This document shows positions 13,446 through 62,977 of a stretch of 64,000 bases of DNA, in pieces; position 1 is the stretch's first letter, and every line of letters starts with the position of its first letter. The stretch covers positions 62,001 to 126,000 of the forward strand of contig NW_027437437.1 in NCBI RefSeq assembly GCF_964204645.1. The letters run 5' to 3'. Made by a program: the position numbers and the translations under genes. This DNA is from Tubulanus polymorphus (lineage: Eukaryota > Animalia > Nemertea). The notes under the pieces are model-generated. The model did not search any database, had not been told where the DNA came from, and worked only from the letters and a program-made list of their open reading frames with translations.

Positions 13446-13740
13446 GGGAGGAATATTCCTCCCTAAATCAATATACTTTGAATCTAAGACTAGGGTTCAT
13501 TTTCCTTCAGTTGACATATGACAATATTTCGAATATCAGACCAGGTCCATTTTCCATCGTTTGACATAGGGAGGAACATTCCTCCCGAAGTCAATACTTT
13601 GAATATCAGACCTGAAGGTCAAATTCTCTTCGTTTGACCTTGGGAGGAATATTCCTCCCAAAGTCAATTGTTTGAATATCGGGCCCCTTGGTCAAGTTTC
13701 CATCGATTGACTTTGGGTGGAATATTCCTCCCAAGGTCAA
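13446..13740. repeat. Subterminal palindromic tandem units (right TIR of the 7-kb element)
   Basis: GGGAGGAATATTCCTCCC cores in inverted correspondence with 7306-7532. Confidence 0.85.
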
Positions 13741-22763: not shown

Positions 22764-22779
22764 TTTAAAATATGAATAT

Positions 22780-23378
22780 AATACCCTTGTGTCTTTATTG
22801 TCTTTAGTACTTTTAGTACTTTTAGTACATAAAGAATAAATCTTTATATTATAAGTAGTGAATAAAATCATTTTTAAAACTACTAAACTACTAAAGATAA
22901 TAAAGACATAAATATATATAATTACTGTTTCAATAATAATATTTATTTATCACACATATTTATTATATATTACTGTTTCAATAATGATAAATATCATAGA
23001 TTTATCATATATAAAAATTATTTATATATTTATTTTTCTAAGTACTAATAAAATAAAGATTTATTCTTTATGTACTAAAAGTACTATTAAGATAATAAAG
23101 ACATAACAAATACACATAGATGTATTATATATATTTGATTCAGTAATAAATATCGTAGATTTATTTATTATTTATCTCACAGATTTATTATATATATTTG
23201 ATTCAATAATGATAAATCTATGTGTGTTTGTTATGTCTCTATTGTCTTTATTGTCTTTAGTAGTTTAGTAGTTTTTAAAAATAATTTTATTTTTAAAGTA
23301 TTGATAAAATAAAGATTTATTCTTTATGTACTAAAAGTACTAAAAGTACTAAAGATAATAAAGACATAAGGAGGTATT
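22780..23378. repeat. ~600-bp palindromic region of inverted TCTTTAT/TTTAGTAC repeat arrays between convergent gene blocks (copy A)
   Basis: Left arm CTTGTGTCTTTATTGTCTTTAGTACTTTTAGTAC... is the reverse complement of the right arm ending ...AAAGACATAAGG; internal partial copies. Confidence 0.88.
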
Positions 23379-23407
23379 AATTTGAAATAGTTTAAATTAT
23401 TCTAATT

Positions 23408-24021
23408 TTATTTTATAAATTTATATTCATAGGGAAATTGAAGCCTCAGAAGTAATTTTGCTAACCTTTACTAATCTTTAATTTATTCATATATTCATCA
23501 TGTAATTCAGTAGGTATAATTTGATTTTCTTCCAATGATTGTTGCATAGATTTTCTATCTTTGTTATAAAATAAAACTAGAAATCTTATATTCTCCCTAA
23601 AGTCTTTAACAATTGAATTATATTTTTGATTTAAAACCCATGTTGTTATCCCAAAATGTCTCCCAGAGAAAGCTAGATAACATAACTCACTTTCTCTTAC
23701 TTTTGAATCATGTAAATTTGCACAATCATCTATAATGAATAATGTATTTGATCCTTTATAAATATCAATTGCTATTTTAATACAATTATCTAAATTTTCT
23801 TTTACTGTTTTAGGATCTAATATAATAAACTTTTTTATCTTAACTATATCTCTATTATATGTTTTATTCATTTCATAAGTAGGACAAAATAATATTATAT
23901 TAACAAAATGATTCTTATAATTAGTTTCTAACAAGTCTAATATGAAATATGTTTTACCACAGTTGGTTACCCCAGTAACTAACATATTATGCGGTTCAAA
24001 TATAAATAAATCTTTATTCAT
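23408..24021 (-). pseudogene. A32-like (FtsK-HerA) packaging ATPase, copy A
   Basis: Walker A GVTNCGKT, Walker B FIIDD, SGRH motif; premature end at 23461. Confidence 0.9.
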
Positions 24022-28293: not shown

Positions 28294-28445
28294 AGTAATA
28301 GGGATAATTGGCGTTCAGGTTAAAGGTTGAAGGGGCGGGCGAGTAAAAAATGAAAAATAAATTCGAGCGTGCGAGAATTTATTTTTCATTTTTTATGAGC
28401 TCGACCCTTCGACCTTTGGCCTGAACGCTCATTATCCCTATTACT
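28294..28445. repeat. 152-bp terminal self-inverted hairpin module of copy A
   Basis: AGTAATAGGGATAAT ... ATTATCCCTATTACT with inner stem AAAAAATGAAAAATAAATTC/GAATTTATTTTTCATTTTTT. Confidence 0.9.
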
Positions 28446-30764: not shown

Positions 30765-31302
30765 AGTAATAGGGATAATAGGCTTTCAGATCAAAGGTCG
30801 AACGGTCGAGCTCATTAAAAAACAAAACATTAAAAGTAATTTAAAACTATAATATATTTTCATAACCATGTGCATTTTATATTATAACTAAATATTTATT
30901 CTAAGATATCAATAATTTAATACAATACACAAATTCATATAATCAAATATATTTTAATAATAATAATTATTCTATTATTCAACTGAAATACACACGGTTA
31001 TGAAAATATATTATAGTTTTAAATTACTTTTAATATTTGTTATTAATGAACTCGACCATTCAACCTTTAACCTGAAAGCCTATTATCCCTATTACTCTTA
31101 AAATAATCATATACATGAATAACATTTAAATTGACAGATTATTCAATATAAAAGTATATATTTACAACATTATTTCAATATTCTTATTTGTGTGAGTTAG
31201 ATTTTTAAACATTAAAAGTGTTAGTAAAGTGTGATTGAAATAATACATGATATAAATCATTGAACTTCTAAAATCAATTTTAATAAAAGATTTAGTATTA
31301 AA
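30765..31302. repeat. Left TIR (~540 bp); first 332 bp (30765-31096) are self-inverted
   Basis: Reverse complement of ~47628-48216; the terminal ~107 bp recur inverted at ~30991-31096. Confidence 0.92.
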
Positions 31303-34300
31303 ATGGAAGCAAATAAGTACTACTGCGCAACATGTAATATCAATATAGATAAATCCCAAAAAGCAAGACACAATAAAACTAAAACACATTTAGAGAATAA
31401 ATTGAAACTAGAATATAACTATGATATATTAGAAACTAAATTAGATGAATTAAAGAATGAAAAAAAACATACAAATGTGATACATGTAATCAATCATATA
31501 GTGATAAAAGATATTATAATGAACATTTAAAATCTAAAAGTCATATTAGAAATAAGAATAATGATATTTTAGGTGAAGATTATTTTGATAAAGATAATGA
31601 TAAGAAACAGAAAACAATTAAAAGCATAAAAAATAAATTAAACAATAAAAGACCATACATGGAAGATGTAAGAAATTATATTAATTCATTAGATAATAAA
31701 AAAGATATAGAGATAACGGAAGCATTTAAAAGTGATATTGGTCCAGCAGGAATCGAGTTTAAATTTCATAAAGGAAAAACATTAGAAGAAAATAAAAAAC
31801 ATTTAGAAAATATGAAAGAAATAATAAAAATAATTACTGATGTTGAATATCCTAAAATAAGTATATCTTCTAAAGTTAAATTCATAAAATCCGAAGATAA
31901 ACCAATATATAATATAAATTCTCATTCACAACATATTATTTCAAAACAACATATAGATGATAAATTAGATAAATGTTATAATGAAGTAAAAACTAAAATA
32001 GAAGAGAAATATTTTGAAGGATCTGGTTTTAATATTTGATGAAATAATATTTATGACTTTACATGTTTATAACACAAAATATAATAAGTTAACTAAATCA
32101 AAACCAATAGATGAAAATAATGTATCATATTATAAAGAACCAGATATTGAAGCATCGAGTTATATTAAACTACCATTTAAAACTAATGCTGTAATAAATG
32201 TACAAAATGAAGATGATAAATGTTTTCTATGGGCCATAATATGTTGTTTACATCCTGCAACTTATAATATTTGTAGATTAACTCATTATAAACCATTTGA
32301 AAATAATTATAAGATAGATAAGTATCCTGTTAGAATTAAAAACATCCCAAAAATAGAAAGAGATAATAATATAAAGATAAATGTATTTGATTTAATCAAA
32401 TTACCAAATACAAAAGGTAACAATATAAAACATTATACATTAGAACCTTTATATATATCAAAAGATTATGATTCAAATGATGTTATAGATATACTATATT
32501 ATGAGAATCATTATATGTGGATTAAACAAATAGATTTATTCTTTAGAACAGAAAGTGATCACCATAATAAAATATATCTTTGTAGAAAATGTTTACATAG
32601 ATTCAGTAATGAAAGTACATTATTAAATCATAAACAATTATGTGAAAATCATGATTATTGTAAATTAGTTTTACCAAATGAAAAGGATAAAATATTAGAA
32701 TTCAAAAAATATGATTACAAAAATAAAGTTCCACTTGTTATATATGGAGATTTTGAATCATTAAATAAAGAACTAACTGATCAAGATAGAAAAGAAATAT
32801 ATTATAAGAGAAAGAAATTAAATTCTAATGAAAATGATTATTCTGAAGAACCACCAAAAACAAATACTATTAAAAAGATTCATCAATCAGCTGCTGCTTT
32901 CGGGTTATATATTAAATCTGATTATCCAGAACTAATTGAAAGTGAATATTATGATTATAGAAATGAAAATGTTATCAATCATTTTTGTGACTTATTAATT
33001 GAATATGAAATAAGATTTAGTAAATTATTGAATACAAATATAGAAATTATAATGACAGAAGAAGATAAAGAAGCATTTGCGTTTGCAGGTAAATGTTATT
33101 ATTGTGAAAAGATAATTAATTATAAAGATAAAAAAGTAAGAGACCATGATCATTTGAATGGAAAGTTTAGAGGCGCTGCACATGAGAATTGTAATTTACA
33201 AGCTAAGAAAATTAATTTTGTACCAGTTATATTTCATAATCTATCAGGATATGATGCACATTTATTTATCAAACAGTTATGTCATAAAATAGAAGAAATT
33301 AATAATGAAATAGAAAGATTAAATTCAAATAGATCAAAAGATAAAATACCAACTTATAAATTTAGAATGTTAGCTAAAACATCTGAGAATTATATATCAT
33401 TCCAATTTGGATGTCTAAGATTTATAGATTCATATAATATTTTTAAGTAGTTCATTAGATAACTAATCAAAATCATTAGTTGGTGATGAATTAAAAATAT
33501 TAAAGCAACACTACCCAAATAATGATGATTTTCAATTAATGAGATATAAAGGAGCAATTCCATATTCTTTCTATAAAAATCATAATGATTTCAATATAAC
33601 TGAATTATTGAAAGAACAATTCTATGATGAATTAAAAAATGAATATGTTAAAGATGAAGTCTATAATAGAACATTGAATATTTGGAATCATTTCAAAATA
33701 GAAAATCATGGGCAATTAGTAGATATATATTTAAAATCAGATGTATTATTATTATATATTCGAAAGGTTTAGAGATGTAAACCTAAAATATTTTAATATT
33801 TAATCCTTGTCATTGTTATTCTAGCCCAGGTTTAACATGGGATTGTGGTTTAAAATTTACAGATATAAAAATGGATTTGTTAACAAATATAGATTAATTA
33901 TTATTATTTGAAAAATCTATAAGAGGAGGAGTTTCAGGTGTATTAGGCGATAGATATTTCAATGTAAATGATAACCCTGGATAAAAGTTATTATATATAG
34001 ATGCAAATAATTTGTATGGTTGGGCAATGATGGAACCACAACCTTATGGAGTATTTGAAATAAGTGAAGTTTTACAGAATGAAAATAATGATAAATTTGA
34101 TTGGAAGAAAAGAATTCTAGATATTGCAGATGATTCAGATACTGGTTACTTCTTTGTTGTAGATTTAGAATATCCTGAACATATTAAATTTAAATCTAGA
34201 AATCTAGCATACTGTCCAGAACATAAAACTGTAACTCATGAAGAATTATCAAATTACCAAAAAAGAATTAAACCCGAAAATCATATTCATACAGAAAAGT

Positions 34301-35334
34301 TAATGGTAACTCAAGAAGATAAATATAATTATGTAGTACATTATAGAATGTTGAAGTTTTATTTGAATCAAGGAATGATTCTAAAAAAAGTACATAGATA
34401 TATTTCATTTAGTCAATCTAAGTGGTTAGAAAAATATATAGATTTTAACACCAAACAGAGAACTGAAGCTAAAACTGATTTCGAAAAAGATTTCTTCAAG
34501 TTAATGAACAATGCATTCTATGGTAAGACTTATGAAAATATTAGAAATAGAAATGATATTGAGTTAGTTAGTAATGGCAAAAGGATAAGGCATTTACAAT
34601 CATATCCTAAGTTCATTGGTAACAGAATATTTGATGAAAATTTAGCTGCAGTTAAAATGAGAAGAACTTCTATGAAATTTAATAAACCAATCTATGTTGG
34701 CGCTTCAGTTTTAGAATTATCAAAATTACTAATGTATGAATTCTATTATAATGTATTACAACCACTTTTTGGAGAAAAACATATAGAAATCTTATATTTT
34801 GATACAGATTCTTACATATTAAAGATAAAAACTGATAACATAACTGATGATTTAAAAACATTAAAACATCATTTTGATTTCAGTAACTATCGTAAAGATC
34901 ATGAATTGTTTAGCAATGATAATAAAAAAGTTCCCGGTAAATTCAAAGATGAATTAGGTGGTGAAGAAATGATTGAATTCATTGGTATTAGATCCAAAAT
35001 GTATTCATATAAAACTAAAGAACATGAAGCTAAATAGTTAAAAGGAATAACCAAAAGTGTAGTAGAAAAGAATATTCATTTCAAAGATTACATCAATTGT
35101 ATATTCAATGAAGAAGTTAGAAAACATAAGATGAGATGTTTAAGATCTGAAGATCATGAAATGTTTATTGAAGAAATTGAAAAGATAAGTCTAAACCCAT
35201 TTGATGATAAAAGATATATTCTGGATGATGGAATTCATACAGTTGCTTATGGTTGTAATTTAGATGAATACTTAAAATTTAAAAGAGAAGAAACAAAAGA
35301 GAACGAGATAATGAAAAGAATTCTAACGTGTTAA
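31303..35334 (+). pseudogene. Protein-primed family B DNA polymerase polyprotein (C2H2 fingers, putative terminal protein, OTU-like domain, exonuclease with endonuclease VII insert, polymerase)
   Basis: DDKCFLWA...NHYMWI; YGDFES, FHNLSGYD, YLKSDV; CYYC...RDHDHLNGKFRGAAH..CN; YIDANNLYGWAM, KLMNNAFYGK, YFDTDS; several stops and frameshifts. Confidence 0.96.
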
Positions 35335-35363
35335 TCAAATTTTAATAAAAATATGTATTATAA

Positions 35364-35717
35364 ATGGAGAGTAAACAAGCGCACAGTGAGAAAAACAAAT
35401 CATTTCTAGATAGAATAAAAGATACTACAAATGTAAAATCTGTAGATTATAAATTCAAAAAGTTAACAGAATTAACAATTCATAAGAAATATCTAATTAC
35501 AAATATTGATACAGTTACTAATAACTATGGAGATAAATTAGTTATACACTTAGAATATGAAGGATTAAAAGGAAATACATATAAATTCAGAACATATTTA
35601 CCGGATAGATTTCATAGATTATCAAGTGAAGATTTAGAAGAATTATGTTCTGGAGATTTCTATTTCGTATACAAAGGTAAGAATGAAAAAGGGCATCATG
35701 AAATAGATTTCGAATAA
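35364..35717 (+). CDS. Small Polinton protein, possibly OB-fold ssDNA-binding
   Basis: Intact 117 aa directly after polB; FKKLTEL...Y.I...NYG..LVI.L...YLPDRF pattern; function is inference. Confidence 0.55.
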   Translation: MESKQAHSEKNKSFLDRIKDTTNVKSVDYKFKKLTELTIHKKYLITNIDTVTNNYGDKLVIHLEYEGLKGNTYKFRTYLPDRFHRLSSEDLEELCSGDFYFVYKGKNEKGHHEIDFE

Positions 35718-35734
35718 GAAAATATGTAAAATAA

Positions 35735-36493
35735 ATGGTAGAATTAAAAGAATACAGAATATTTGTTGATTCTAGAAGACTTACAAATTATAAATCTCAT
35801 AATTTACCAGTACAATTAGATAGGGAATATAAAAATTGTGTAGATTTAAAATTAGTAAATATAAGTTTATGTAATTCTTTTTATAATATAACGGATAAAA
35901 CTATTGAAGATAATGCTTTTATGATTCATATTAGAAATGTAAATAAATGGTTTCATCTAATTTTAAAACCAGGATTATATAATTGAGAAACATTAGCTCA
36001 AGAAATTAATCGAAGAGCACGGTTGAAAATTAGAAAAGATGATAAATTTTTAATTAGATTTATAAAAAGTGATAGCACAAATAAAATTAAAATAAAGGTA
36101 TATGATGAAAGTCAACATGCATTTATGGTAAAAAAACCATTAGCTAAACTGTTAGAAATTGCACCAGATACTGTTACAGGAAACGTAGATGGTAATTCAA
36201 ATATAATACCTTTTACACACTTTTATATTTATTGCAATTTAATCGAGCCTACAAAAACATTCGAAGCAACTAAAGATACAATTTGTAATTCTAGTATATT
36301 GAATATTTTACCATTAAAAAATGTTAAACAATTTGGAACGCAAATAGATTATAATTTAACAGAATGTGATTTCAAACCATGCATTTCTCAATTTAATAAT
36401 TTTAGATTAGAAATAAGAAATCACAATGGATATTTAATTGATTTGAATAATTTTCCTGTGATATATGAATTAGTTATAAGATGTAGAGAGTAA
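35735..36493 (+). pseudogene. Minor capsid (penton, single jelly-roll) protein
   Basis: IFVDSR...NSFYNI and FYIYCNLI...ILNILP...FRLEIRNHNGYLIDLNN; two same-frame ORFs separated by one TGA at 35984-35986. Confidence 0.82.
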
Positions 36494-36510
36494 TGTTTTT
36501 CACTATATAA

Positions 36511-36867
36511 ATGAATATAACTGTTGGACCGAGTATATGTTTTGGGTTTGATTTTAAACGTGAGAAAGAAATGAAATTTAACATTACTGATGTAATTACA
36601 CATATCAAAAATATAACATTTTCTAATGAAACAACATTTGAGTATGAAACAACAATAAATAAAGAAACTTTAAATGTAGAAAAGATTACTAATTTGATTA
36701 GAGAATCTTTAAGATTTTATGAATTAGATGAAGATTTTATCATCGATGATATTAAAAAAATAATAATTGAAATATATACAAATGAAACTAGTAATGAAAT
36801 AAATGTTGAATTAATCATAAATAAGATAACTAAATATTTTGATGATAGTAATTTTTTTGATAAATAA
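36511..36867 (+). CDS. Polinton hypothetical acidic protein
   Basis: Intact 118-aa ORF in a tightly packed block, TAAATG start. Confidence 0.65.
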   Translation: MNITVGPSICFGFDFKREKEMKFNITDVITHIKNITFSNETTFEYETTINKETLNVEKITNLIRESLRFYELDEDFIIDDIKKIIIEIYTNETSNEINVELIINKITKYFDDSNFFDK

Positions 36868-37089
36868 ATGAGTGATAATAAGTGGATAATAACTGGATTA
36901 TATAACAGAGCATTACTATCAGTTGGAACTGTTGGTTATTCAATGGTATTAAAAAAAGTATTTAAAATGGGAAGTGTTAATGTTGATAGATTTGATATCA
37001 ATGATATTTTAAAATTAACATTAGCAGTCACTTTATCTAATTTAACTATTGATTATTTGGAAAAACAAAAATATATTCCTCCCATATAG
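36868..37089 (+). CDS. Small hydrophobic protein (73 aa)
   Basis: Two hydrophobic stretches, TAAATG start. Confidence 0.7.
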   Translation: MSDNKWIITGLYNRALLSVGTVGYSMVLKKVFKMGSVNVDRFDINDILKLTLAVTLSNLTIDYLEKQKYIPPI

Positions 37090-37113
37090 ATACATAATTA
37101 TTTTACTAAATAA

Positions 37114-37536
37114 ATGGCTTCTGCAGTTATAACTATTATAGGATCGGCAATTGTTAACGCTTTAGCATTTACTGGTGGTGGTTATTTATTCAAGCATATT
37201 GATAAAAATGGATCATTAACAGAACAAAAAAGACATAACTTAGCATTAGAGAAATACAATAAAGCAGCAGAAGAATATAGAGAAAAACGACAAAACTATA
37301 TGGATTATATTAACAAAGAATTATATGATCAGAAGATTTCACATAGAGATTTTCAATCAGTTGATGATGCAATCAGTTTATATAACGCAGTAACCAATAA
37401 AGAAAAATTACATCTACATAAACCTACAATATCAGATTATTATACCCCAAGTAATGAACAGAAGAAATATGAAATAATATGGATTTTAGGTGGAACAGTT
37501 ATTGTTATATTTGTTGCTTATAAGTTTACTAATTAG
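37114..37536 (+). CDS. Membrane protein with hydrophobic termini and central coiled coil (140 aa)
   Basis: MASAVITIIGSAIVNALAFTGGGYLF...IIWILGGTVIVIFVAY. Confidence 0.75.
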   Translation: MASAVITIIGSAIVNALAFTGGGYLFKHIDKNGSLTEQKRHNLALEKYNKAAEEYREKRQNYMDYINKELYDQKISHRDFQSVDDAISLYNAVTNKEKLHLHKPTISDYYTPSNEQKKYEIIWILGGTVIVIFVAYKFTN

Positions 37537-37555
37537 TAATTTTTTTGCTAAATAA

Positions 37556-37990
37556 ATGGAAGATAAAGTTGATAATATTGATATTATTCCTCATGATATA
37601 AATAAAACTAAATTAAAAACATATTTAGAAAAACAAATATTAGAATTTGAAAGTGATTTAAAAGTTAAAAAGAAAAAATATTTAAAAAGTAAAATTATAT
37701 ATTATCTTATTATCAGTGGTTCGGTTACAATTTGTTCTGTAATAACATTTCTAGCAATATTCAGTCCATTAACACCTTTAGCTATATCAATTGGTGTATT
37801 AGGATTAAGTTCAAGTGTTTTAACTGGTATAAGTTCAAAATTGAATATAAAAAGTAATAAAGAAAAAATTAAAACTAATATAAAAGAAATTAATAAATTA
37901 AAGAATACACTAGATTATATGATAAGTTTAAATGGCCATATAACAGTTGAAGAACAACATAAATTATTAAAAGAATTAATAAATTATTAA
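37556..37990 (+). CDS. Two-TM, coiled-coil protein (144 aa)
   Basis: IIYYLIISGSVTICSVITFLAIF and LAISIGVLGLSSSVLTGI flanked by charged helices. Confidence 0.72.
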   Translation: MEDKVDNIDIIPHDINKTKLKTYLEKQILEFESDLKVKKKKYLKSKIIYYLIISGSVTICSVITFLAIFSPLTPLAISIGVLGLSSSVLTGISSKLNIKSNKEKIKTNIKEINKLKNTLDYMISLNGHITVEEQHKLLKELINY

Positions 37991-38006
37991 TTTTTGAGTT
38001 ATATAA

Positions 38007-39334
38007 ATGGCTAGATAGTTTTCCAAAAGCTTTCCAATATAATAAATCAATTAAATATAATATTCCAGCAATAGATTTTAATAAAGATATTACATATAGA
38101 AATGAAGTTTTAAATTCATTAATTGATTTATATATTTATGTTACTGAAAGTAATAATTTTCATGTAAAGATGGAAAATATATTTCATGTGTATACAATTA
38201 ATTTTCAAAAATTTAAATGAGGCAAAACAATGGTTATTAAAATCTAATATGAAGTATTGGCAGAACCAATTAAATTTTGCTGTTTATTGCGCAACAACAG
38301 GTTGTGGAATTAGTTGGAATGATCATTTAAACAAACCAAGTTTACCATTGATGTTATCACTTTTTAGATTTCATACATATTTTCAAATAAAATTAATATT
38401 AGATGAATTAGAATGTCCTTTACCAGGTTCAAAATTATTTAAAAATTTGAATAATAATATTAATTTTTCTAAGTTTTATAAAATATGTAATGAATTTAAT
38501 ATTAATTCAAATAAAGATTTTAGAGCAAAAATTGGAACAATGGGTGGATTAGGAATATTATATACTAAAGAATTTGGAAAAATAATGACAAATTCAGATA
38601 TAGGAACACTAAATTGGAATGAATTACCAAAATATTATAATAATATACAACAACAAAACAATAATGGTTGGGTTAATTTCATTTTAGAAAATAGTGAAGG
38701 TTTTACTAAAGCTGGTATACAAAGAATAAATCAATCAATTAGAACTTATTTGATATGTATTTTAGGTGCGCAAGTTGAAACAAGATCCCCAATAATTGGA
38801 AATGATAACACTTCATTCGATGCGCAGAAACAACTCAAAGTATTATTTGAAGATTCAATTCATTATGATAAAAATAGATCGATTCCAGAAAACATTGTAA
38901 GATATCAAAATTATTTAGATAAATCACATATTAGATTAAATTATTGTATAGGCCCTAATCTATTAATTATTTCTAATGATTTAGTATTAAAGATGGGAAA
39001 TATAATTGGTTATAATAATCTAATTAAAACTGCAACAATAAATAATTCATTTGGATTGAATGATACAACTAAAAAGATTATCACTGCTCCAAAATAAATG
39101 GAGGGTGAAAAAAATAAAAAACACATTCAATCAACAGAAACTAAAACTAATAATATTAAATTAAATAATGATTCTAAAATAAAAGATTACAATACATCAG
39201 AAAATATTAGAACTGATATTATTCAACATGATATAATTAAAACTAATGATGATAATAAATCCCATGAAAATGCTAAATTAGCTTTAACTTGTGTAGGAAT
39301 TGTAATCGGAGGAATATTATATTTTAGATTTTAA
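38007..39334 (+). pseudogene. ~440-aa Polinton protein with C-terminal TM anchor
   Basis: TAAATG start at 38007 with early disruption; 38186-39097 and 39098-39334 are in one frame separated by a single TAA; ends LALTCVGIVIGGILYF. Confidence 0.7.
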
Positions 39335-39350
39335 TTTTTTCATTATGTTA

Positions 39351-40787
39351 ATGGCAGAAGGTGGAGAAGATATTCCAATAGATACTTTTGGTGACGCTCC
39401 CGGCATAAGTGATGAACAACCACCTGATTTTAGTGAAACAAGTTTTAGTAATGATGGTAATGAGCCAGAATATAATTCTAATTTAAATACACCTGAAGTT
39501 GTTCCTGGTTCTAAACCCCAATCAACAAATGAATATATTAAAGGAGCTAGATCGAAAATACGTGCTGAAAATTTAGTGCCAGGTTTAATAAATAAAGAAT
39601 TAAATTATGATGAAATCTGGTTTCAATATAACAGATAAAGGTATGGATATATTAGCAAAAGATTTGAAATATTTAAAGGGTGTTTATTATTGGAAATTGA
39701 AAGGCGACTATCATTTTATTATTTTAAATATTAAAAGTAACGATAAAATAATAGCACAATCAACTTTTAAATTATTAGAACAATCTAGAATTAAGAAAAT
39801 CAATAATGATGTTATAACTGATGTTACAAAAAAGAAAGATCTGTTAATTTAAAAGAATTTAAACAAAGATATGCTAAATTTTTTAAGATCATTAATGAAA
39901 AATTAGAACCAGAAACAATTACTAAAGAAGTTATTAATTCCAAAACTAGTAAACCTAATTCAATAGAAGTTCAAACTGAAAAACTTTTACCGAAGGGATT
40001 ACTTGGTGCAACAGATCAAGAATTAGAAAATTTAAATATATTTTCTGATGAAGCAATTAGAGAGATTATTAGTATAAGAAATGCATCTGATAAAATTGCG
40101 CATGAAAAAAATATAAGAGATTTAAAAATTAGAACTTTAGAAAAAGAATTAACTGATAAAAATGAAGAAATAGAACAATTAGATAGAGATAATAAAGTTA
40201 TTGAAGAAATAGAATATAGGCAAAAAGAATTACGTTTAGAAAAAGAAATTGATGATTTAAAATATAATATAGAATTACAGAAAGAAGAAAGAGATATATT
40301 ATTAAAAGAATATGGTAATAATCTTAAAAGGTTAAAAGATGTTTTTAAAAGATATCTAATAAAACCAAATTCTGAAATATCATTGAAAGATAGAATAAGA
40401 TTATTATTTAAATTAGAAGGAATAACAATTCTCTCAATTCTAACAGCTGTAACTATGGTATTTACAACAATTGGTTTAGCTATATCAAATTCTTTAAAAT
40501 CTACTCCTACTCCCAATAAACCGGATAAACCCCCAGGTAATAATTCTATACAAGATAAAGTTAAAGATGGTTTCAAGAAATCAGCAAAATATTTATGGGA
40601 ACTATCTAAAAAATCTGCTGCAGCTTTACCAGGAATTATTGCATCAATTGTTGGTTTTATATTGAAATCTGCAGGAAACATTCTTAACTTTGCTGCTGAA
40701 CATATTATTTTATTTTTAATTACAGTTGTAAGTGCTATTATTTTTGGGTTAGTAAATATGATATCAAAAAATATCAAGAAAGAATAA
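39351..40787 (+). pseudogene. Long coiled-coil protein with C-terminal multi-TM region
   Basis: MAEGGEDIP... start; fragments in several frames; three hydrophobic segments at 40383-40787. Confidence 0.72.
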
Positions 40788-40836
40788 TAAAAAATAAACA
40801 TAATCAAAATAAATAATTAATTTTTTTGTTAAATAA

Positions 40837-42016
40837 ATGAGTGGGAGTTATATCAATCCTTCTAAGAATCATAGAATATCTAATGCTATTAAAGCAGAAA
40901 GATCACATCATATAATTACTCATAACCCTTCTAATATTAATCCCGATGAAACTTTATATGTTAGAATTCCTCGATTAACACAAAATACTTTTTATGTTCC
41001 AAATAGTATTTATTTATCAGCTGATATAAAAGTAATCGGTAATAATAATAATTATGTTGTTGATAATGTTGGAAGATATTTGATTAAAAAGTTAACAATA
41101 AAGATTGGTCCAGAAACAGTTTTCTCATTAGATGATTATAATTTATTTATGCATTATAAAGATTTATGGTTAACTAAAGAAAATAGAAATAATATGATAT
41201 TTCAGGGTATTCAATCGGAAAACCATAATAAATTAAGATCAGGAGCTAATGACGCAATAGTAACTCGTGCCACAGATAATTTGATTAAAAAGATTTATGG
41301 AAGCAAATATAAAATCCCATTAGACTTTGAATTGATAAACAATAATGCACCTTTATATAAATACGCAATTCAAGAAGATGTTATATTCGAAATAACATTT
41401 GCTCCTGTAAATGAAATTGTATTATCTAGCGTTGTTAAAGATATGAGTTATAAATTATCAAATATATGTTTAGAATATGATACAGTAACTGATGAAAATA
41501 TTGCTAGCACAATTCAAACTCAATACAATCAAGGATTTTCATTATTATATGATTATATTGATAAATTTAAAACCGTAACTATTAATGCAAATGATGAAAT
41601 TATTAATGAGAATATTAACTTCCCAAGAAGATCTATTAAAGGTATATTAATATTTTTTTACCATTGCAACATATTCTAATGGTGCAATACTGGTTGATAA
41701 GTATTATAATCCTGAAATAACAAAAGTAGAAATAACTATCGAAGGAATAGCAAATAAAATATTTTGTCAAGGAATGAGAATGATAGATCAATGGCCAGAA
41801 ATTAGAAAACATTTTATGAATGAAAAAGTGAAATCATCTGAAAATTGTAATATTAATCAAATTGATTATTATACCGGTATTAAATATGCATTATGGTTAG
41901 ATTTTAGAACAACAGAGGATAATTCATTACATGGTTCTGGAAAAAAACTACAGAACACTTAAGATGGAATACAATTATTCATGACAAAGAAAAAAGGAAG
42001 CCTAAATTTCAAAATG
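40837..42016 (+). pseudogene. Major capsid protein, copy B (frameshift ~41660; last ~25 codons deleted)
   Basis: Highly similar to 20311-21552; homology stops abruptly after AAATTTCAAAATG. Confidence 0.87.
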
Positions 42017-42573
42017 TAACAAAGGCTAATTGGGCAAAACATTATAAATTAATAACAAAAGGTGGAAATGATTCAGCCCATGCAATATAGGTATTTAAAT
42101 CTTGGTGTGAAAAATGTAAAGAATATGTAATATATGATAAACAATTGAATCATAAATACTCAATTAAACATATTGGTACAGATAATGTAATAGAAAATCC
42201 AACAGTTATAAATCCAAAATTTAATAAAATGAATATATTAGATTATCGGTGGTATAGAAAAACATTTATAGATTATTTCTCGAGTAATGATATAGTTACC
42301 ATATTGAAAAAGTTAGATAACTTTAAACCAAATGTTACTGATGCAATGAACTTATTTGAACTTAAATATGATGATTTTAGAGAATTTTTAAATAAACATC
42401 CATCTAAAACTGAAATCGAAAATTATATTCCAAAAATATTTTCAAGAGAAACATTCAATAAATATAAACTCGGGAATCGTTTAGGAATTATACCAATGAA
42501 AATGCAAAGGAATATACGGTTAGAATATGATAAGCTTAAAGAAAAATATGAAAATGAAAATGAAAAAGATTAA
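42017..42573 (+). pseudogene. 3' remnant of the variable zinc-finger gene, copy B
   Basis: WCEKCKEYV......H.YSI.H and YRKTFIDY align only weakly with copy A CEKC...H.ISI.H and YRSIFIDY. Confidence 0.6.
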
Positions 42574-42588
42574 TTTCCATTTATATAT

Positions 42589-42908
42589 TGATGGATGAAT
42601 GGATGAGTTGGATGAGTTGGATGAGTGGAAGAGTGGATGAGTGTAATAATATATATATTTTACTTTTTAACACATGAATTGGAAGAATAGTATGAGTATA
42701 AATATAATATTTGTATTCTTTTTTAAATTTAACACAATATATATATATTATTAAAATAATATTTAAATGTAGTATAAAATTGATAAAATAACTTCAAATC
42801 AAACTCTTACTGTTTTAAAAATAAAAAACATATGTAAATTATATATTATTACACTCATCCATTCATCCAATTCATCCAATTCATCCAATTCATCCACTCA
42901 TCCACTCA
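42589..42908. repeat. Inverted arrays of 8-9-bp GGATGA(G/A)T repeats around an AT-rich core (copy B)
   Basis: ~6 units plus GTGTAATAATATAT on the left, mirrored by ATATTATTACAC plus ~6 TCATCC units on the right. Confidence 0.9.
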
Positions 42909-43159
42909 AACACATTCAAAATTCTATAATATTTTAAATTAGGATTTTATTTTGTAAATTTATATTCATACGGAAATTAAAGCCTCAGTAATAATAAATA
43001 ACCTTTATTATTTTCAAACTAATTCATATATTAGTTGAAAAAAATAAAAATAAATTGGTTGAAATTATATGAATAATATTTATTTTAAAAATGGGGTTTC
43101 AAGCATTAATGTATTTAATACGTATCTAATACGTATTAGATAGATAGATATATAAATAG

Positions 43160-43775
43160 TTATTTTATAAATTTATATTCATATGGAAATTGTAGTCTCA
43201 GTAATAATTTTGAACCTTTATTATTCTTTAATTTATTCATATATTCATCATGTAATTCAGTAGGTATAATTTGATTTTCTTCCAATGATTGTTGCATAGA
43301 TTTTCTATCTTTGTTATAAAATAAAACTAGAAATCTTATATTCTCCCTAAAGTCTTTAACAATTGAATTATATTTTTGATTTAAAACCCATGTTGTTATC
43401 CCAAAATGTCTTCCAGAGAAAGCTAGATAACATAACTCACTTTCTCTCACTTTTGAATCATGTAAATTAGCGCAATCATCTACAATGAATAATGTATTTG
43501 ATCCTTTATAATCAATTATCAATTGCTATTTTTATACAATTATCTAAATTGTCTTTTACTGTTTTAGGATCTAATATAATAAACTTTTTCATCTTAACTA
43601 TATCTCTATTATATGTTTTATTCATTTCATAAGTAGGACAAAATAATATTATATTATCAAAATGATTCTCATAAATAGTTTCTAACAAGTCTAATATGAA
43701 ATGTGTTTTACCACAGTTTGTTACTCCAGTAACTAACATATTATGAGGTTCAAATATAAATAAATCTTTATTCAT
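43160..43775 (-). pseudogene. A32-like packaging ATPase, copy B (single frameshift ~43515)
   Basis: GVTNCGKT, FIVDD, SGRH. Confidence 0.92.
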
Positions 43776-44859
43776 TTATTCTTTTAATTTTACTAGATAA
43801 AATCCATTCATTAAATTTATCATCGTATCCTTTATATTTCACCAAAGAATACTTTTTTCCTTTAAGAGTTTTTGTTTTCAATACTTTTTCTATTTTGTAT
43901 TCTATTTCATCTGGATTTGGTACAAGTGATAATTCTTGTTCATAGAAATAACCTAATATTTCTTCATCTTTTAGATCTTCTAGTTTATAAACAAAAGGTT
44001 TAGTTAATATTATCTTTTTAATCTTAAATATTTCTTCAGTAAAATTAGGAGTATAACCTTTATAAAATGTTTTTCGATATTTAGATATTCTAACATGTTG
44101 TCTAATTTTAAATTTAGGTTCACCGAAATCATGTGTAACAAATGCTCCATATAAATTATTCCAAACTATTTCCGAATTATCTTCTTTTCTAGCTTGTATA
44201 GGTTTCATATTTATAGAACTATGTTTAGAATTATTATAACCTTTCACCAAATCATCTAACACACCGATATATTTATATGTTTCATTAGCAGTAAAGTATT
44301 TCCACATTCTAGTTTTCAATGTTTTATTAAATCTTTCTATAATAGATGCTTTTTTATCTGAGTGTGTTGAAAAATATTCTACATCGTTATCAGATAATAG
44401 TTTTTTTAAATGTTTGTTATAAAATTCCTTACCTTCATCAAATTGTATCTTATCTGGAATAGCTTCTTTAAATATTGATTTAAAAGCATTTGTTACTTCT
44501 ATTCCAGTTTTATTTTTGATTGGAATTGACCATGCGTATCTACTGAATATATCTATAACATTCAGTATCCAGAAATATCCGTTGTTGTATTCCTCTAAGT
44601 TCTTCATGTCAATTAAATCTGCTTGCCATTGTTGATCGATATATGAAACCATAACTTTTCTTGTTAAATAAGTTTTATCCATTTTCTTGTGTATTTGATA
44701 TGTTGGTTGATTTTGTAACCATAATCTTAGTTCACTATATTTTATATTACCATTTTCTTTATCAGATTTAATTTTATTCCATAATTCTAAAACGTTAGAA
44801 TATGATACTTCACTCTCTGGGTTATAATATAACTCTCTTAAATATTGTTCTTTTTTCAT
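43768..44859 (-). CDS. Retroviral-like (rve) integrase with C-terminal chromodomain, intact 363 aa
   Basis: DDE motifs WQADL, IQFDEGKEF, IERFNKTLK; chromodomain YKIEKVL...LVKYKGYDDKFNEW. Confidence 0.95.
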   Translation of the reverse strand: MKKEQYLRELYYNPESEVSYSNVLELWNKIKSDKENGNIKYSELRLWLQNQPTYQIHKKMDKTYLTRKVMVSYIDQQWQADLIDMKNLEEYNNGYFWILNVIDIFSRYAWSIPIKNKTGIEVTNAFKSIFKEAIPDKIQFDEGKEFYNKHLKKLLSDNDVEYFSTHSDKKASIIERFNKTLKTRMWKYFTANETYKYIGVLDDLVKGYNNSKHSSINMKPIQARKEDNSEIVWNNLYGAFVTHDFGEPKFKIRQHVRISKYRKTFYKGYTPNFTEEIFKIKKIILTKPFVYKLEDLKDEEILGYFYEQELSLVPNPDEIEYKIEKVLKTKTLKGKKYSLVKYKGYDDKFNEWILSSKIKRINE

Positions 44860-44865
44860 CTTCTT

Positions 44866-45264
44866 TTAATCCATTAATAATAATCTTGGTTTATTTTCAA
44901 CGATTTTAACATTTGACTTATTTTCTGGTATAATAGGTTTACTGTCTGTACACGGATAACTAAGTTTCCGATTGTCATTGGAATCATCTTTATCATCAGA
45001 TTTGAATTTTGATGTATATATTACACCGCATAATATAATAACTGTTACTAATCCAATTGTAATATATAATTTATAATTGCTTCCAGCATTAGAAGAATCA
45101 GATGGATTATTATTTGAATGAATATCAGATAAAGTCTGTGATTCATTTATATCAGTTAATTTCTTTTTCTTAGCTTTTTTTAATTCTGAAGATCTTTTAC
45201 CTAATTCTCTTGCCCATATAATTTGTTTCTCGGATCTAGCCTTTTTCTTAACTCCATCACTCAT
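44866..45264 (-). CDS. Small basic plus TM protein (132 aa)
   Basis: Intact in copies A and B; YITIGLVTVIILCGVIY hydrophobic segment. Confidence 0.75.
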   Translation of the reverse strand: MSDGVKKKARSEKQIIWARELGKRSSELKKAKKKKLTDINESQTLSDIHSNNNPSDSSNAGSNYKLYITIGLVTVIILCGVIYTSKFKSDDKDDSNDNRKLSYPCTDSKPIIPENKSNVKIVENKPRLLLMD

Positions 45265-45269
45265 TTATT

Positions 45270-45861
45270 TTAGTTAATTTTTGTTCTGATATCATTTTCT
45301 GTTTCGACGTTTGGTTGTAGTACATCTGTTTCGTTCTTACCTGATTTATATTCCATAGGCTTGATGTTCGAAAATGTTATGACGCCAGTAGAAATTAATG
45401 TCATAACCGATCCTAATTGAAATGAAGCATATCCGACCCATTTTTGTAATTCAGTCATAACTAAATAGTCATTTTTCAAATCACTATATAATTTATTTTC
45501 ATCATCAATTGGTATTAACTGGTTACATAACTTAGAATAACATTTGACAATACCATCTGAAATAGAATCATTTATTCTAGCTAATCTAGCTTCTTCATAA
45601 ATCTTAAAATATTTCATTACTTTATCGGGTTTCATAGCATCTAATTCTTGAAAAGTAATTATTTTCCCGATAAACTGATTATATTTCCCGCCAGCAATTA
45701 ATAATTCTAGATGGTGTTTACAATATAAATAGTATTCATAATCAATATTACAATTAATATTATTTTCAATTTTGATTGGAATATCCTTATTATCACTAAT
45801 GCCTAAATCATCTAATGTTTTTTCATATGTTGGTATTATTCTTATTTGATTTCTTTGACAT
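45270..45861 (-). pseudogene. Polinton hypothetical protein
   Basis: Orthologue of 25264-25873; TAAATG start at 45861; disrupted. Confidence 0.7.
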
Positions 45862-46973
45862 TTATATTAGAGAAAAAAGCAAGAAAAATATTATAAGTAT
45901 TCTTCAAAAGATACTAGCTAGTTAAAGCTAAAGAATTTCTATTCGGATCTATTCAAAATATAAAGTATTCTCTTTTGAAAAGAAAGTATTAAAAATATAA
46001 TAGAATTCACTAGCTAGTTGAAGTTTTTGTTTTTTAAATACTTTTTATTTAGATTAGGATTTAGATTATCTCACTAATATTGTTTATCTATAGGAGCAGT
46101 AACTATAACTGTCCAGATAAGTCATTTCGGATTCTCGATAATAAATCCTAAAACTGAAAATAAATTCAAAGAAACGACTGGTGGAAATACTATTTCATAA
46201 ACACATATATTTTGTTATACAATCATTATCGATTTCTACATTCCTCACCGGGCGTCTGAGGCCCGGCAAGTTATGCGTGGAATGCAGGAATCAATAAAAT
46301 ACAATACAACATCTGTCACTGTGTGTCATTAACAACAGCTTAATGACGCAATTGACATTCCGACAAACGTAATGCATTGGAAGCCTATACAGTATGGCTA
46401 AACTGCTACATGTCTCATGAGTTGAAATATCCATTATTTCTGATTCCACATCCATCTATCTTCACTTTCTTGATTCAATGGCCTTCATTTTGTTATCTAA
46501 AAGATAAATATCTAGCGTAGAATAAAACTAACTTGAAGTTGTAGTTGTAAAATATTAATTACAACACTTAAACATGACCATTTTGTGGCGCATCTTACCA
46601 GGATAAGTTTTACATGTTTAGCGTTTTCCAACGCCTTAATAACAACAAAAACCGTACTTACATTTATAACTGTAAACTCCTAAAATTGTGTTTATAGAGA
46701 GAATATCCTATACGTTCCTATGCTTATGTGCTGCGCGTTTATAACTGGCAGTTATTCACTAGCTAAACACTGTCTGTGCAACAGATGTTCCTTCTTTTGT
46801 AATATAATTGATTAATCCTTTTCAACTAAAATAACACACCCGATCAATATTCAAATGAGATACACCCTATTCAACTGAATATGAAATACGGCACAGATGT
46901 TTTTGTAAACAACCTAATACAATTACATACAGGCGGTTTGACATAGATCGAGAGTAACCGGTTTTCTAAGCGT

Positions 46974-47627
46974 TTAACATTCAACGTATTTTTCATTATG
47001 TGTTGAGTTCCATAATTCAACAAATGTCTTTGCTTCATCCAGTTGATCTAAATATAACTGTATATCTAGTTTATTAGATTTAATTATATTTTCTTTCTTT
47101 TCAAGAGGTCTTAAATTTCTCCAGTTCTATATTAGCTTCTTATTATAATCATCACTCATGTCAAATTTAGATATTGGTAACAGGTGATCAATATGGTAAT
47201 AATCCCCATAATTATCTATATTCATTTTATCATCGAATTGAAATATAATCCATGATTTGAGAAATTCATCTGAACAACCCAATAAATTAGATAGTGTTTC
47301 TGAATGTGTTTCTTTGTTGAATAATTGTGTTAATCTAGATCTTAAACATTGTTTCAATCTAAAATTAAGATCTGTTTGATATCTTTCTCTCATATATTCT
47401 GCCATATAATAATTATAATGTTCTATATTATCTTCTCGGTATTGTTTGGTATATAGTTTAAAACAAGTTTTAAAGCAATATTGAAAACCATCTTTGCTAA
47501 TCTTACGCTTACTAAATTCTGTTAAAGCTAATTTATCTAATTCACATTTAGAACACTTCTTGTAGTATATATTTATAACACCAGCGTTATTTGTTATATC
47601 GATAGTTTGTGGTTGTTCTGGTTCCAT
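46974..47627 (-). pseudogene. HNH endonuclease (large-DNA-virus/phage type), one premature stop
   Basis: KKCSKC...KDG...C, LLGCS, NYGDYYHIDHLLPISKFD, then *NWRNLRPLEKKENIIKSNK. Confidence 0.85.
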
Positions 47628-48216
47628 TTATTATACATATTTTTTTACTAAATTGATTTTAGAAGTTCAATGATTTATATTATGTATTATCTCAATCACA
47701 CTTAACTAACACTTTTAATGTTTAAAAATCTAACTCACACAAATATAAATATTGAAATAATGTTGTAAATATATACTTTTATATCTATTCTATAAGAGCT
47801 CACACTTTACTCACACTTTTATATTGAATAATCTATCAATTTATATGTTATTCATATATATTTTATTCATGTATATGATTATTTTAAGAGTAATAGGGAT
47901 AATAGGCTTTCAAGCGGTCGAGCGGTCGAGTTCATTAATAACAAATATTAAAAGTAATTTAAAACTATAATATATTTTCATAACCGTGTGTATTTCAGTT
48001 GAATAATAGAATAATTATTATTATTAAAATATATTTGATTATATGAATTTGTGTATTGTATTAAATTATTGATATCTTAGAATGAATATTTAGTTATAAT
48101 ATAAAATGCACACGGTTATGAAAATATATTATAGTTTTAAATTACTTTTAATGTTTTGTTTTTTAATGAGCTCGACCGTTCGACCTTTGATCTGAAAGCC
48201 TATTATCCCTATTACT
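47628..48216. repeat. Right TIR; last 328 bp (47889-48216) are self-inverted
   Basis: Reverse complement of the left TIR; inner AGTAATAGGGATAAT at 47889. Confidence 0.92.
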
Positions 48217-59794: not shown

Positions 59795-60300
59795 GCGGAG
59801 CCGCAGAAAGATCTTTTTTGTTCAAAAGACCTTTCGCTCGAAAATCTTTTTGTCGGAACACAAATTTTTTCGCTTGAACCAATTAAATTCTGTTTCGATT
59901 GAACCAATTTAATACAAAAATCGTTAGAACAAAGTTGTGTTCGTTCGAACAAACTTTTTTTTGTCCAAACGAAAGGTTTTTCGTTCGAACAAGTATATCG
60001 TAAAAAGTTTTTTGTTCGAACCAAAAGTATAAAGCATTTCGTTCAATCGAACAGAATTATTTTCATTCAAACGTTCGTTCGAAAAAAATGGTTTTCGCTC
60101 AACAATTTTTTTTTGTCGGGACAAAAAGTTTTTCATTTCAACTATAGCAATTTTTTGTCCAAACGAAGAAAAGTTTTCGTTCCAACAAAAAGCATGTTGT
60201 TCTATCAAATAGAATTGTTTTCATTCGAACGAGATTTTAGAACATTAAGTTTCGTTTTGTTCGAACAGATATATTGTTTCATCGAAGCATTTTACGAGCT
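59795..60300. repeat. Degenerate TTCGAAC-rich short tandem array
   Basis: Many (GT)TCGAAC units with A/T tracts; starts with mini-palindrome TGCGGAGCCGCA; probably a subterminal array of a DNA element. Confidence 0.65.
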
Positions 60301-62977
60301 CATAAAAAATAAAAAATAAATTCTCGCACGCTCGAATTTATTTGTCATTTTTTACTCACTCGCCCCTTCAACCTTTAACCTGAACCCCTATTATCCCTAT
60401 TACTCTTAAAATATTCATATATATGAATAACATATAAATCTAAAATCAATTTTAATAAAAAATTTGATATTAAAATGGAAGCAAATAAGAAGTACTACTG
60501 TCCAACATGTAAAATCAATATAGATAAATCCCAAAAAGCAAGACACAATAAAACTAGAACACATTTAGAAAATAAATTAAAATTAAAAATATAAAGATGA
60601 TATATTAGAAACTAAATTAGAAGAATTAAAGAATGAAAAAGAAACATACAAATGTGATACATGTAATCAATCATTCAGTGATTAAAGATATTATAATGAA
60701 CATTTAAAATCTAAAAGTCATATGAGAAATATGAATAATGATATTTTAGGTGAAGATTATTTTGATAATGACAATGATAAGAAACATAAGACAATCAAAT
60801 TACCAAATACAAAAGGTGATAAAATTGTACATTATACATTAGAACCTTTGTATTCATTAAAAGATTATGATTCAAATGGTGTTATAGATATATTATGAAA
60901 ATCATTATATGTGGATAAAACAAATCGATTTATTTTTTAAAACAGAAAATAACCACAATAAAATATATCTATGTAGAAAATGTTTACATAGATTCAGTAA
61001 TGAAAGGACATTATTAAATCATAAGCAATTATGTGATAATCATGATTATTGTAAAATAGTTTTACAAAATGAAAAGGATAAAATATTAGAATTCAAAAAA
61101 TATGATTACAAGAATAAAGTACCATTTGTAATATATGGAGATTTTGAATCACTAAATAAGGAACTAACTGATCAACTAACTGATCAAGATAGAAAAGAAA
61201 TATATTATAAAAGAAAGAAACTAAACTATGAAAATGATTTTTCAGAAGAACTACCAATAACAAATACTATTAAAAAGATTCATCAATCAGCAGCAGCTTT
61301 TCGATTATATATTAAATCTGATTACCCAGAACTAATTAAATGTGAATATTATAATTACAGAAATGAAAGTGTTATCAATCATTTTTGTGACTTATTAATC
61401 GAGTATGAAATAAAATTTTATGAAAAGTTAAATGAAAATAAAGAAATAATTATGACAGAAGAAGATAAAGAAGAATTTGAGTTTGCAGATAAATGTTATT
61501 ATTGTGAAAAGATATTTAATTATAAAGATAAAAAGTAAGAGACCATGATCATTTGAATGGAAAGTTTAGAGGCGCAGCGCATGAGAATTGTAACTTACAA
61601 GCTAAGAAAATTAACTTTGTTCCAGTAATATTTCATAATTTATCAGGATATGATGCTCATTTATTCATCAAACAGTTATGCCATAAAATAGAACAAATCA
61701 ATAATGAAATAGAAAGATTAAATTCAAATAGATCAAAAGATAAAATACCGACATATAAATTTAAAATGTTAGCTAAAACATCTGAGAATTATATATCCTT
61801 CCAATTCGGGTGTCTAAGATTTATAGATTCATATAGATTTTTAGGTAGTTCATTAGATAATTTATCAAAATCATTAGTTGATGATGAATTAAGAATATTA
61901 AAGCAACACTATCCAAATAATGATGATTTTCAATTAATGAGATATAAGGGAGCGATAGCATATAGTTTTTATAAAAATCATAATGATTTTAACATAACTG
62001 AATTATTAAAAGAACAGTTTTATGATGAATTAAAAAATGAATATGTTAAAGATGAAGTATATAATAGAACATTGAATATTTGGAATCATTTTAAAATAAT
62101 AAATCATGGACAATTAGTAGATTTGTATTTAAAATCGGACGTATTATTATTAACTGATATATTTGAAAGGTTTAGAGATGTAAATCTAAAATATTTTAAT
62201 ATTGATCCTTGCCATTGTTATTCATCACCAGGATTAACTTGGGATTGTGGTTTAAAATTTACAGATTTAAAAATGGATTTGTTAACAAATATAGATCAAT
62301 TATTATTATTTTAAAAATCTATAAGAGGAGGTGTTTCAGGTGTATTAGGGGATAGATATTTCAATGTAAATGATAACCCTGGATATAAATAATATATCAT
62401 ATATAGATGCAAATAATCTAGTTGGGCAAGTAATCTGGTTGGGCAATGATGGAACCACAACCTTATAGAGTAATTGAAATAAGTGAAGTTTTACAACATG
62501 AAAATAATGATAAATTTGATTGGAAGAAAATAATTCTAGATATTGCAGATGATTCAGATACTGGTTACTTCTTTGTTGTAGACTTGGAATATTCTGAAGA
62601 TAAAAAATTTAAATTTAGAAATCTAGCATACTGTCCCGAACATAAAACTGTTACGCATGAAGAATTATCAAATTATCAAAAAAGAATTAAACCTGAAAAT
62701 CATGTTCGTACAGAAAAGTTAATGGTAACTCAGGAAGATAAATATAATTATGTAGTGCATTATGTTGAAGTTTTATTTGAATCAAGGAATGGTTCTAAAA
62801 AAAGTGCATAGATATATTTCATTTAGTCAATCTAAATGGTTAGAAAAATATATAGATTTTTACACCAAACAGAGAACTAAAGCTAAAACTGATTTTGAGA
62901 AAGATTTCTTCAAACTAATGAATAATGCATTCTATGGTAAGACTTGTGAAAATATTAGAAATAGAAATGATATTGAG
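60295..62977 (+). mobile_element. Polinton copy C: partial left TIR (copy-A-type hairpin) and truncated polB
   Basis: 60295-60404 is the reverse complement of most of 28294-28445; polB homology ends at 62977. Confidence 0.92.
60475..62977 (+). pseudogene. pPolB fragment with ~0.8-kb internal deletion at ~60797
   Basis: Jumps from the equivalent of ~31618 to ~32397; same exonuclease, endonuclease VII and KLMNNAFYGK motifs as copy B. Confidence 0.92.

Follow-up and report, generated by a model that had tools for sequence, protein, structure and literature searches.

A hypervariable zinc-finger and palindrome junction in a family of Maverick/Polinton elements

Results

Layout of the element and its central slot

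The 64-kb stretch of DNA analysed here (the window) holds three decayed copies (A, B and C) of one AT-rich element, whose host is presumably a marine invertebrate. In copies A and B, a slot between a putative major capsid gene (MCP) and a packaging ATPase gene contains a zinc-finger gene and a large palindrome. The relevant features, in window positions, are as follows.

30765–48216, no strand: Maverick/Polinton copy B, decayed; TIRs start AGTA, 6-bp TSD GGTGTA on both sides
40837–42016, plus strand: putative MCP of B, broken and 3′-truncated by a deletion at 42016; weak Capsid_N match, intact orthologues
42017–42573, plus strand: slot gene of B, 5′-truncated; half a finger, one U1/matrin-like finger and a helical C-terminal domain; one in-frame stop
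42588–42909, no strand: B palindrome, inverted arrays of TGGATGA(G/A) units of 8–9 nt round an AT-rich core
42947–43032, minus strand: decayed duplicate of the final 86 nt of the ATPase gene; identity to 43160–43245, 84%
43033–43159, no strand: 127-nt spacer with the remnant of a second palindrome type (TAATACG, ~43109–43146), common to L002
43160–43775, minus strand: A32-type packaging ATPase of B, frameshifted; Pfam Pox_A32
20311–21552, plus strand: putative MCP of A, broken, C terminus kept
21585–22763, plus strand: slot gene of A, broken; a conserved motif at the N terminus, then a low-complexity linker, three U1/matrin-like fingers and a helical C-terminal domain
22785–23371 (fold-back arrays 22744–23413), no strand: A palindrome, nested inverted repeats with TTAGTAC and GTCTTTA units
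23408–24021, minus strand: A32-type packaging ATPase of A; Pfam Pox_A32, E 1e-10

The TIRs of copy B (30765–31311 versus 48216–47619) are 86% identical and end in AGTA…TACT, in agreement with the AG…CT of Mavericks, and GGTGTA at both ends forms the 6-bp target-site duplication typical of the group. Pfam identifies an rve integrase (E 1e-8) with a chromodomain, the A32-type packaging ATPase (Pox_A32, E 1e-10) and a protein-primed family B polymerase (pPolB), the latter from a copy C gene 90% identical to that of B (DNA_pol_B_2, E 8e-6; E 1e-36 in the relative L019). On these sequence features, the element is a Maverick/Polinton. The capsid assignment is putative, based on position and a weak Pfam match (Capsid_N, E 0.0045, below the cut-off); the gene is conserved at 414–420 aa in relatives, and its product has no sequence match in the PDB. 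Among the ORFs scanned, no Pfam or NCBIfam match to an adenain-like protease or a minor capsid protein was found.

Copy C is the third and a partial copy (60295–62977), comprising the left end and the polymerase, ~90% identical to B. A GC-richer, non-homologous stretch in B (~46120–46970) is absent from A and is probably a later insertion. Another element in the window (7084–7531 and 13574–14059) has long inverted repeats made of 73-nt tandem units. Within each TIR, the terminus is duplicated in inverted orientation, over ~330 nt in B (30765–31096 and 47889–48216) and ~150 nt in A (28294–28445), so the element ends can fold back. Terminal palindromes are reported in protist virophages and PLVs in the accessible part of bioRxiv 10.64898/2026.07.28.741278.

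A single metagenome scan yielded 26 related loci, three of which (L002, L005 and L006, the last two near duplicates at 99% likeness) have the full MCP–finger–palindrome–ATPase slot, with the same layout and other repeat units. No relatives were found in the viral contigs or genome contigs searched. Intact MCP orthologues of 414–415 aa occur in L001, L002, L005 and L006, and intact slot proteins have 277 aa in L002, 408 aa in L005 and 431 aa in L006.

Close relatives show two gene orders. In the window, L002 and L005, the integrase–ATPase block and the capsid block face each other across the finger gene; in L001, L003, L004 and L025, the former directly follows the latter with no finger gene between. 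The close relative L001 also has a deoxynucleoside kinase gene (7874–8512; Pfam dNK, E 2e-31), which fits a link to large DNA viruses. Element-specific, GC-richer repeats lie upstream of the finger gene and within coding DNA (L002:3168–4065; L005:1200–1250, 4945–5015 and ~6330–6360); they include three FPEHSS repeats in the L002 protein and CAGAC-type units in L005.

Sequence relationships of the slot genes

MCP and ATPase are very alike between A and B (93.3% and 95.3% identical), as the first-pass annotation had reported. It had also called the finger gene barely alignable, and the slot genes of A and B indeed give no blastn match at E ≤ 1e-3, but shuffle-tested alignments reveal homology. 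Finger 3 of A and the finger of B share 10/27 residues, a score reached by 0/300 shuffles, and the same holds for the modules of B and L005 (25/97, 0/300) and of L002 and L005 (43/94 or 46%, 0/300). An N-terminal motif is common to A, L002 and L005 (A–L005 12/21, 0/300). The helical domain of A aligns weakly, with 3–5 of 300 shuffles reaching its score. Both the closest finger (14/39) and the closest N terminus to those of A belong to L005. All slot proteins combine widely spaced C-x2-C…H-x5-H fingers with a helical domain. On these alignments, the slot genes of A, B, L002 and L005 are one homologous, fast-diverging zinc-finger family.

Pfam matches of the fingers are weak, sub-threshold and of U1/BED types; U1/matrin fingers usually bind RNA or protein. 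A model of the full-length slot protein has a pLDDT of 37.5, too low for use. That of a 108-residue module reaches 68.6, with no convincing structural match (best Z 4.4); the lack of a Foldseek match at E ≤ 0.001, and of any DNA-binding fold, does not imply a novel fold. Homologue searches returned near-self matches only. Atlas matches to HTH_23 clusters scored 0.85 and 0.75, below the trust level, and all atlas scores were under 0.9. The one representative match, P0124, was rejected as a charged repeat protein with compositional likeness.

The B gene, previously described as a zinc-finger gene, is a 5′-truncated stump, and the same deletion clips the capsid gene. The MCP ends at 42016 without the last 22 codons found in A, and the sequence then enters mid-finger. 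At that position 441 raw reads (same species label) diverge from B, and in a contig from another run the B finger gene continues 213 nt further upstream.

Palindromes of different sequence at one position

The B array has 11 copies of TGGATGA, counting both strands (42588–42909), and the A array has 8 of TTAGTAC and 7 of GTCTTTA. RNA folding gives z −14.1 for B (0/100 shuffles) and −20.4 for A (0/20); termini aside, no fold-back window of either copy scores higher than its palindrome (194 and 143; medians 28). Alignment of the A and B spacers is no better than shuffled (141/300 reach the score). The earlier description, of one inverted-array design built from unrelated units, therefore stands for the folding and the unlike sequences, but A is a nested double inversion and not simple arrays round one core. 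In B, the two arms are homogenised separately (GAGT versus GAAT units). The TGGATGA array assigned to B is likewise real, but a second repeat type (TAATACG, within 43033–43159) and the 86-nt copy of the ATPase 3′ end had been missed.

In all five close-clade stretches scanned (A, B, L001, L002 and L005), the highest-scoring internal fold-back window is the spacer 3′ of the ATPase. The convergent ATPase/finger junctions fold strongly on both strands in five of five cases (z about −7 to −31), and their spacers are unrelated in sequence, with 259/300 (A–L002), 274/300 (B–L005) and 61/300 (L002–L005) shuffles reaching the score. Conservation of shape and not of sequence at gene 3′ ends is thus present at 5/5 such junctions. 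A hairpin after most genes is absent, most spacers being shorter than 40 nt or not folding. Two of the four tandem-order relatives fold after the ATPase (L004, z about −9; L001, −2 to −5), and L003 and L025 do not. The spacers of L001, L003 and L025 partly resemble the B region upstream of the 45270-type gene (0, 1 and 0 of 200 shuffles). These three are therefore no clean examples of a palindrome without a finger gene. L004 is the cleaner finger-less fold-back, but its contig is 1.3 kb; the contigs of both L001 and L004 are incomplete.

Weaker fold-backs occur at two other places in L002 (scores 76 and 62). AATAAA is found 9 and 11 times on the two strands of the A spacer and on neither strand of the L002 spacer. 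The palindromes have no match in Rfam, and no strand bias in G-U pairing was seen. A pattern search with GGATGA returned L027–L030, which are four unrelated coding repeats and were set aside.

Probable exchange of the slot between copies

A and B are sisters on the ATPase (99/99) and MCP (100/100) trees. Among the spacers tested, TTAGTAC is enriched only in A (8 copies) and L005 (3), TAATACG only in the B remnant and L002, and TGGATGA only in B, with 0/500 shuffles in each case, counts that overstate the strength of these motifs because they were chosen after viewing the data. The motif types cut across the core-gene tree. Over the whole spacer, A and L005 do not align significantly (184/300 shuffles); the 127-nt TAATACG spacer of B is like that of L002 to a degree reached by 1/300.

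Since the 86-nt copy of the ATPase end lies between the two palindromes of B, each palindrome type follows its own ATPase stop codon. The duplicated end is likely a fossil of cassette capture. The simplest reading of the sequence is that a block made up of finger gene, GGATGA palindrome and donor ATPase end became attached to a copy with another type of slot; a less simple alternative would be an ancient local duplication.

Read depth, taken from ~12% of one run at 82% likeness, gave bins of 808–1016 for the capsid gene, 520–813 for the ATPase, 28–60 for the B finger gene, 31–47 for the GGATGA palindrome and 41–61 for the duplicated ATPase end plus spacer; the bin at the gene/palindrome junction (7.5), where repeats were skipped, is unusable. 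The B slot type thus marks roughly 5% of the family, with gene and palindrome equally abundant. Their matching depth makes them appear to travel together, unlike an independent MITE, whose depth would be higher than that of its neighbour. At 43140, a further 79 reads depart from B and enter a longer array like the TAATACG remnant, so the remnant type is common in this genome. The suggestion that the slot is an exchangeable cassette is supported by the sister position of A and B against repeats shared with L005 and L002, respectively, by the duplicated ATPase end and by the matching depth. We conclude that this is a real exchangeable junction in a Maverick family.

TAAATG at gene starts

TAAATG starts 25/27 ORFs in six close loci (L001–L005 and L025), against 23/410 out-of-frame ATGs, and 37/46 ORFs in farther relatives (a subset of L008–L026); the background is 65/927 ATGs in the close loci and 104/1790 in the farther ones. 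The upstream stop is reused in only 1/25 TAAATG starts of the close loci. In A and B, the motif is present at 15/18 hand-picked starts (window 19507–48216), and outside the elements it is found at 1/22 ORFs of the window. T at −3 is a poor Kozak context.

In the available text of PMC6211774, TAAAT is the vaccinia intermediate/late transcription initiator. The TAAATG starts suggest that the element may be transcribed by a helper virus with a poxvirus-like polymerase. Such a helper would be needed, as the element yielded no RNA polymerase gene.

Roughly a dozen units that contain TAGTAT, together with a shared CTAGCTAGT motif, precede the block-initial 45270-type gene and probably form a promoter element. 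Sites are at L002:1–218, window 45913 and 46009, L003:1290 and L025:401.

Discussion

A candidate two-way 3′-end signal

Our preferred account, held tentatively and drawn from comparison of the copies, is that the slot is a hypervariable Maverick junction whose finger gene and palindrome likely move as one block, the palindrome likely acting as a shape-defined, two-way 3′-end signal for the converging gene blocks. It takes up the second option of the first-pass annotation, a bidirectional 3′-end hairpin, which would fit best. Exchange would come about when the conserved flanking genes, MCP and ATPase, recombine, with an imprecise join in B. Selection would act on the fold-back rather than its sequence, so that slippage and template switching could replace the repeat units; being neighbours, protein and repeat would co-vary. 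A poxvirus-like (helper) polymerase would make read-through transcripts and would need one strong stop where the blocks meet.

Several findings count against a 3′-end signal. Other convergent junctions have no hairpin, including an overlap at L005 1296–1299, a 2-nt gap at L001 7871/7874, an 83-nt spacer in L009 (z −0.5) and the short or missing spacers of L010, L013, L014 and L015, TAAATG users though these are. Such junctions, together with the tiny size of most spacers, rule out a hairpin rule. The arrays span 70–600 nt in many short units, larger than a terminator needs, and resemble binding-site arrays. In the AATAAA-rich A spacer, host polyadenylation would suffice. The TIRs also have fold-back duplications, so the family may simply make palindromes readily. 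Finally, A and L005 share TTAGTAC, the closest finger and the closest N terminus, as a cognate pair would give.

Alternative explanations

In such a cognate pair, the finger protein would bind its own repeat array, which would serve as an operator, an internal origin or a site for packaging or incompatibility, and the two would diversify together. Multi-copy short units in inverted arrays do resemble operator arrays, the B gene and palindrome have equal depth (28–60 versus 31–47) and the proposed capture in B would have moved both at once; the A–L005 likeness and the HTH_23 leads, below trust level as these are, point the same way. However, linkage alone predicts all of this, and the sample is four alleles, with one concordant pair (A–L005) and two discordant comparisons: L002 and L005 share module 1 (43/94) and not the repeat, and the C-terminal module of B is closest to that of L005 (25/97) with unrelated repeats. 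The fingers are widely spaced with weak, sub-cut-off U1/BED-type Pfam matches, and the fold-back spacers of L001 (partly promoter-like) and L004 adjoin no finger gene. Elements with a pPolB start replication at their termini, which makes an internal origin needless. The binder–site pairing put forward in the first-pass annotation thus gained no support beyond linkage, given four allele pairs, a 46% identical L002/L005 module beside different repeats, finger-less fold-backs and no DNA-binding fold found; we regard it as unlikely. We are similarly doubtful of a neutral by-product, whereby the only long non-coding internal stretch gathers inverted duplications (through template switching of the protein-primed polymerase and slippage), has no function beyond a 3′ UTR and hitchhikes with the finger gene. 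The ~330-nt internal fold-backs in both B TIRs, the weaker ones elsewhere in L002 (76 and 62), the separately homogenised B arms (GAGT versus GAAT) and the farther relatives that do without any palindrome all fit this account. It sits poorly with non-coding stretches of similar length that do not fold (L003, L025, L019, L021 and L026, and A and B upstream of the 45270-type gene), with motif types that recur in distant elements and with the same position being affected in every convergent copy.

Baculovirus homologous regions (hrs) and plasmid Rep–iteron pairs are also imperfect palindromes of short repeated units that differ between lineages, the hrs being dispersed in several copies. The slot differs from both in being a single site, at 3′ ends, for which the binder is only a candidate. 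An hr-like array of TA(A/G)TAC-type sites, which a host or helper-virus factor would use as an enhancer or origin and which would be unconnected to the finger gene, seems to us quite improbable. TA[AG]TAC is enriched in A (12), L002 (8) and the B remnant (3), and weakly in L005 (3; 22/500 shuffles), and in L002, L005, A and B the block-initial gene is preceded by similar TAGTA(T/C) units; yet the B GGATGA array, L001 and L004 have no such site, and the array sits where both blocks have their 3′ ends. MITEs that had inserted independently into the slot would be short, AT-rich, palindromic and non-coding, as these palindromes are. We consider them highly improbable, as there are four unrelated types at the same position, no flanking duplication by eye and no other copy in the 64-kb window or the 26 loci, and the palindrome depth (B type only) equals that of the adjacent gene and is not higher. 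For B, an independent MITE is already largely refuted: the refuting outcome named in the first-pass annotation, palindromes dispersed as independent MITEs with their own TSDs, was not observed for this type, given the matching depth and the lack of a stand-alone copy in the window and the 26 loci.

Relation to known systems

The sections available of PMC8097293 describe vertebrate Mavericks/Polintons (Polintoviricetes) with features also present here, namely TIRs, a 6-bp TSD, pPolB, an rve integrase with chromodomain, an A32 ATPase, a putative capsid and two gene modules that converge on the centre from opposite strands. Relative to these, the present element differs in gene order, in having a long palindrome and a hypervariable finger gene in its middle, in TAAATG starts and in that no protease was identified; the terms palindrome, zinc and hairpin do not occur in that paper. 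The hairpin-rule polyadenylation signals of Mimiviridae (PMC4402537, portion available) are likewise palindromes kept in shape and not in sequence, there at transcript ends and here at gene 3′ ends. In that account, most genes terminate in a hairpin, which a viral enzyme cleaves, whereas here each element has one large, repeat-built palindrome and most spacers are too short for a hairpin. Yeast cytoplasmic virus-like elements and vaccinia, in the part of PMC6211774 already drawn on, share the TAAAT/TAAAN initiator and a compact linear genome with TIRs; in the yeast elements, a similar initiator occurs together with 3′-end stem loops and probable read-through. Both encode their own RNA polymerase; none was found in the element described here, which is an integrating one with genes for a capsid and an ATPase.

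Entomopoxvirus-associated PLVs (PMC11296320) and mosaic Polisuviricotina (bioRxiv 10.64898/2026.10.13.758929) show, in the accessible portions of these sources, that module exchange is common, that repeats and palindromes bracket mobile modules and that animal PLVs can be tied to poxviruses. The modules exchanged there are replicases or end modules and not the MCP–ATPase slot. Neither promoter nor palindrome is mentioned in the main text of PMC11296320, nor palindrome or hairpin in the available parts of PMC11131425 and bioRxiv 10.1101/2023.08.22.554363. As far as these partial sources go, the convergent two-module Maverick architecture (PMC8097293) and mosaicism in the group (bioRxiv 10.64898/2026.10.13.758929; PMC11296320) are already known. 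For a central palindrome cassette or TAAATG starts in Mavericks, we found no description in the literature searched, which mostly excluded subscription journals and supplements, and a prior description is possible.

Implications for animal Mavericks

Whether animal Mavericks are autonomous or helper-dependent is a question in the field, and little has been described of their cis-signals. One swappable junction that takes several palindrome types, together with near-invariant TAAATG starts, may bear directly on helper dependence. Helper-type transcription is a more testable lead than the cognate pair. A broader and rather speculative reading, which we think unlikely in full, concerns an integrated Maverick clade, probably of marine animals: a poxvirus-like helper would transcribe it, with every gene opening at TAAAT(G), the read-through transcripts of both blocks would end at one central hairpin, and the hairpin and finger gene would form a swappable specificity cassette, kept polymorphic across lineages, in which the finger protein would either bind its own hairpin, as RNA or as DNA, or block the helper. 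If true, this helper-transcribed reading would make these animal Mavericks virophage-like parasites.

Should neither of two expectations hold, untemplated 5′ poly(A) leaders at TAAAT together with 3′ ends in the palindrome, or allele-specific finger proteins, the slot would be an ordinary variable accessory locus. If the 5′ leaders and 3′ ends both hold, the elements would be virophage-like, and if the finger proteins are allele-specific, the slot would be a eukaryotic-virus analogue of plasmid incompatibility groups.
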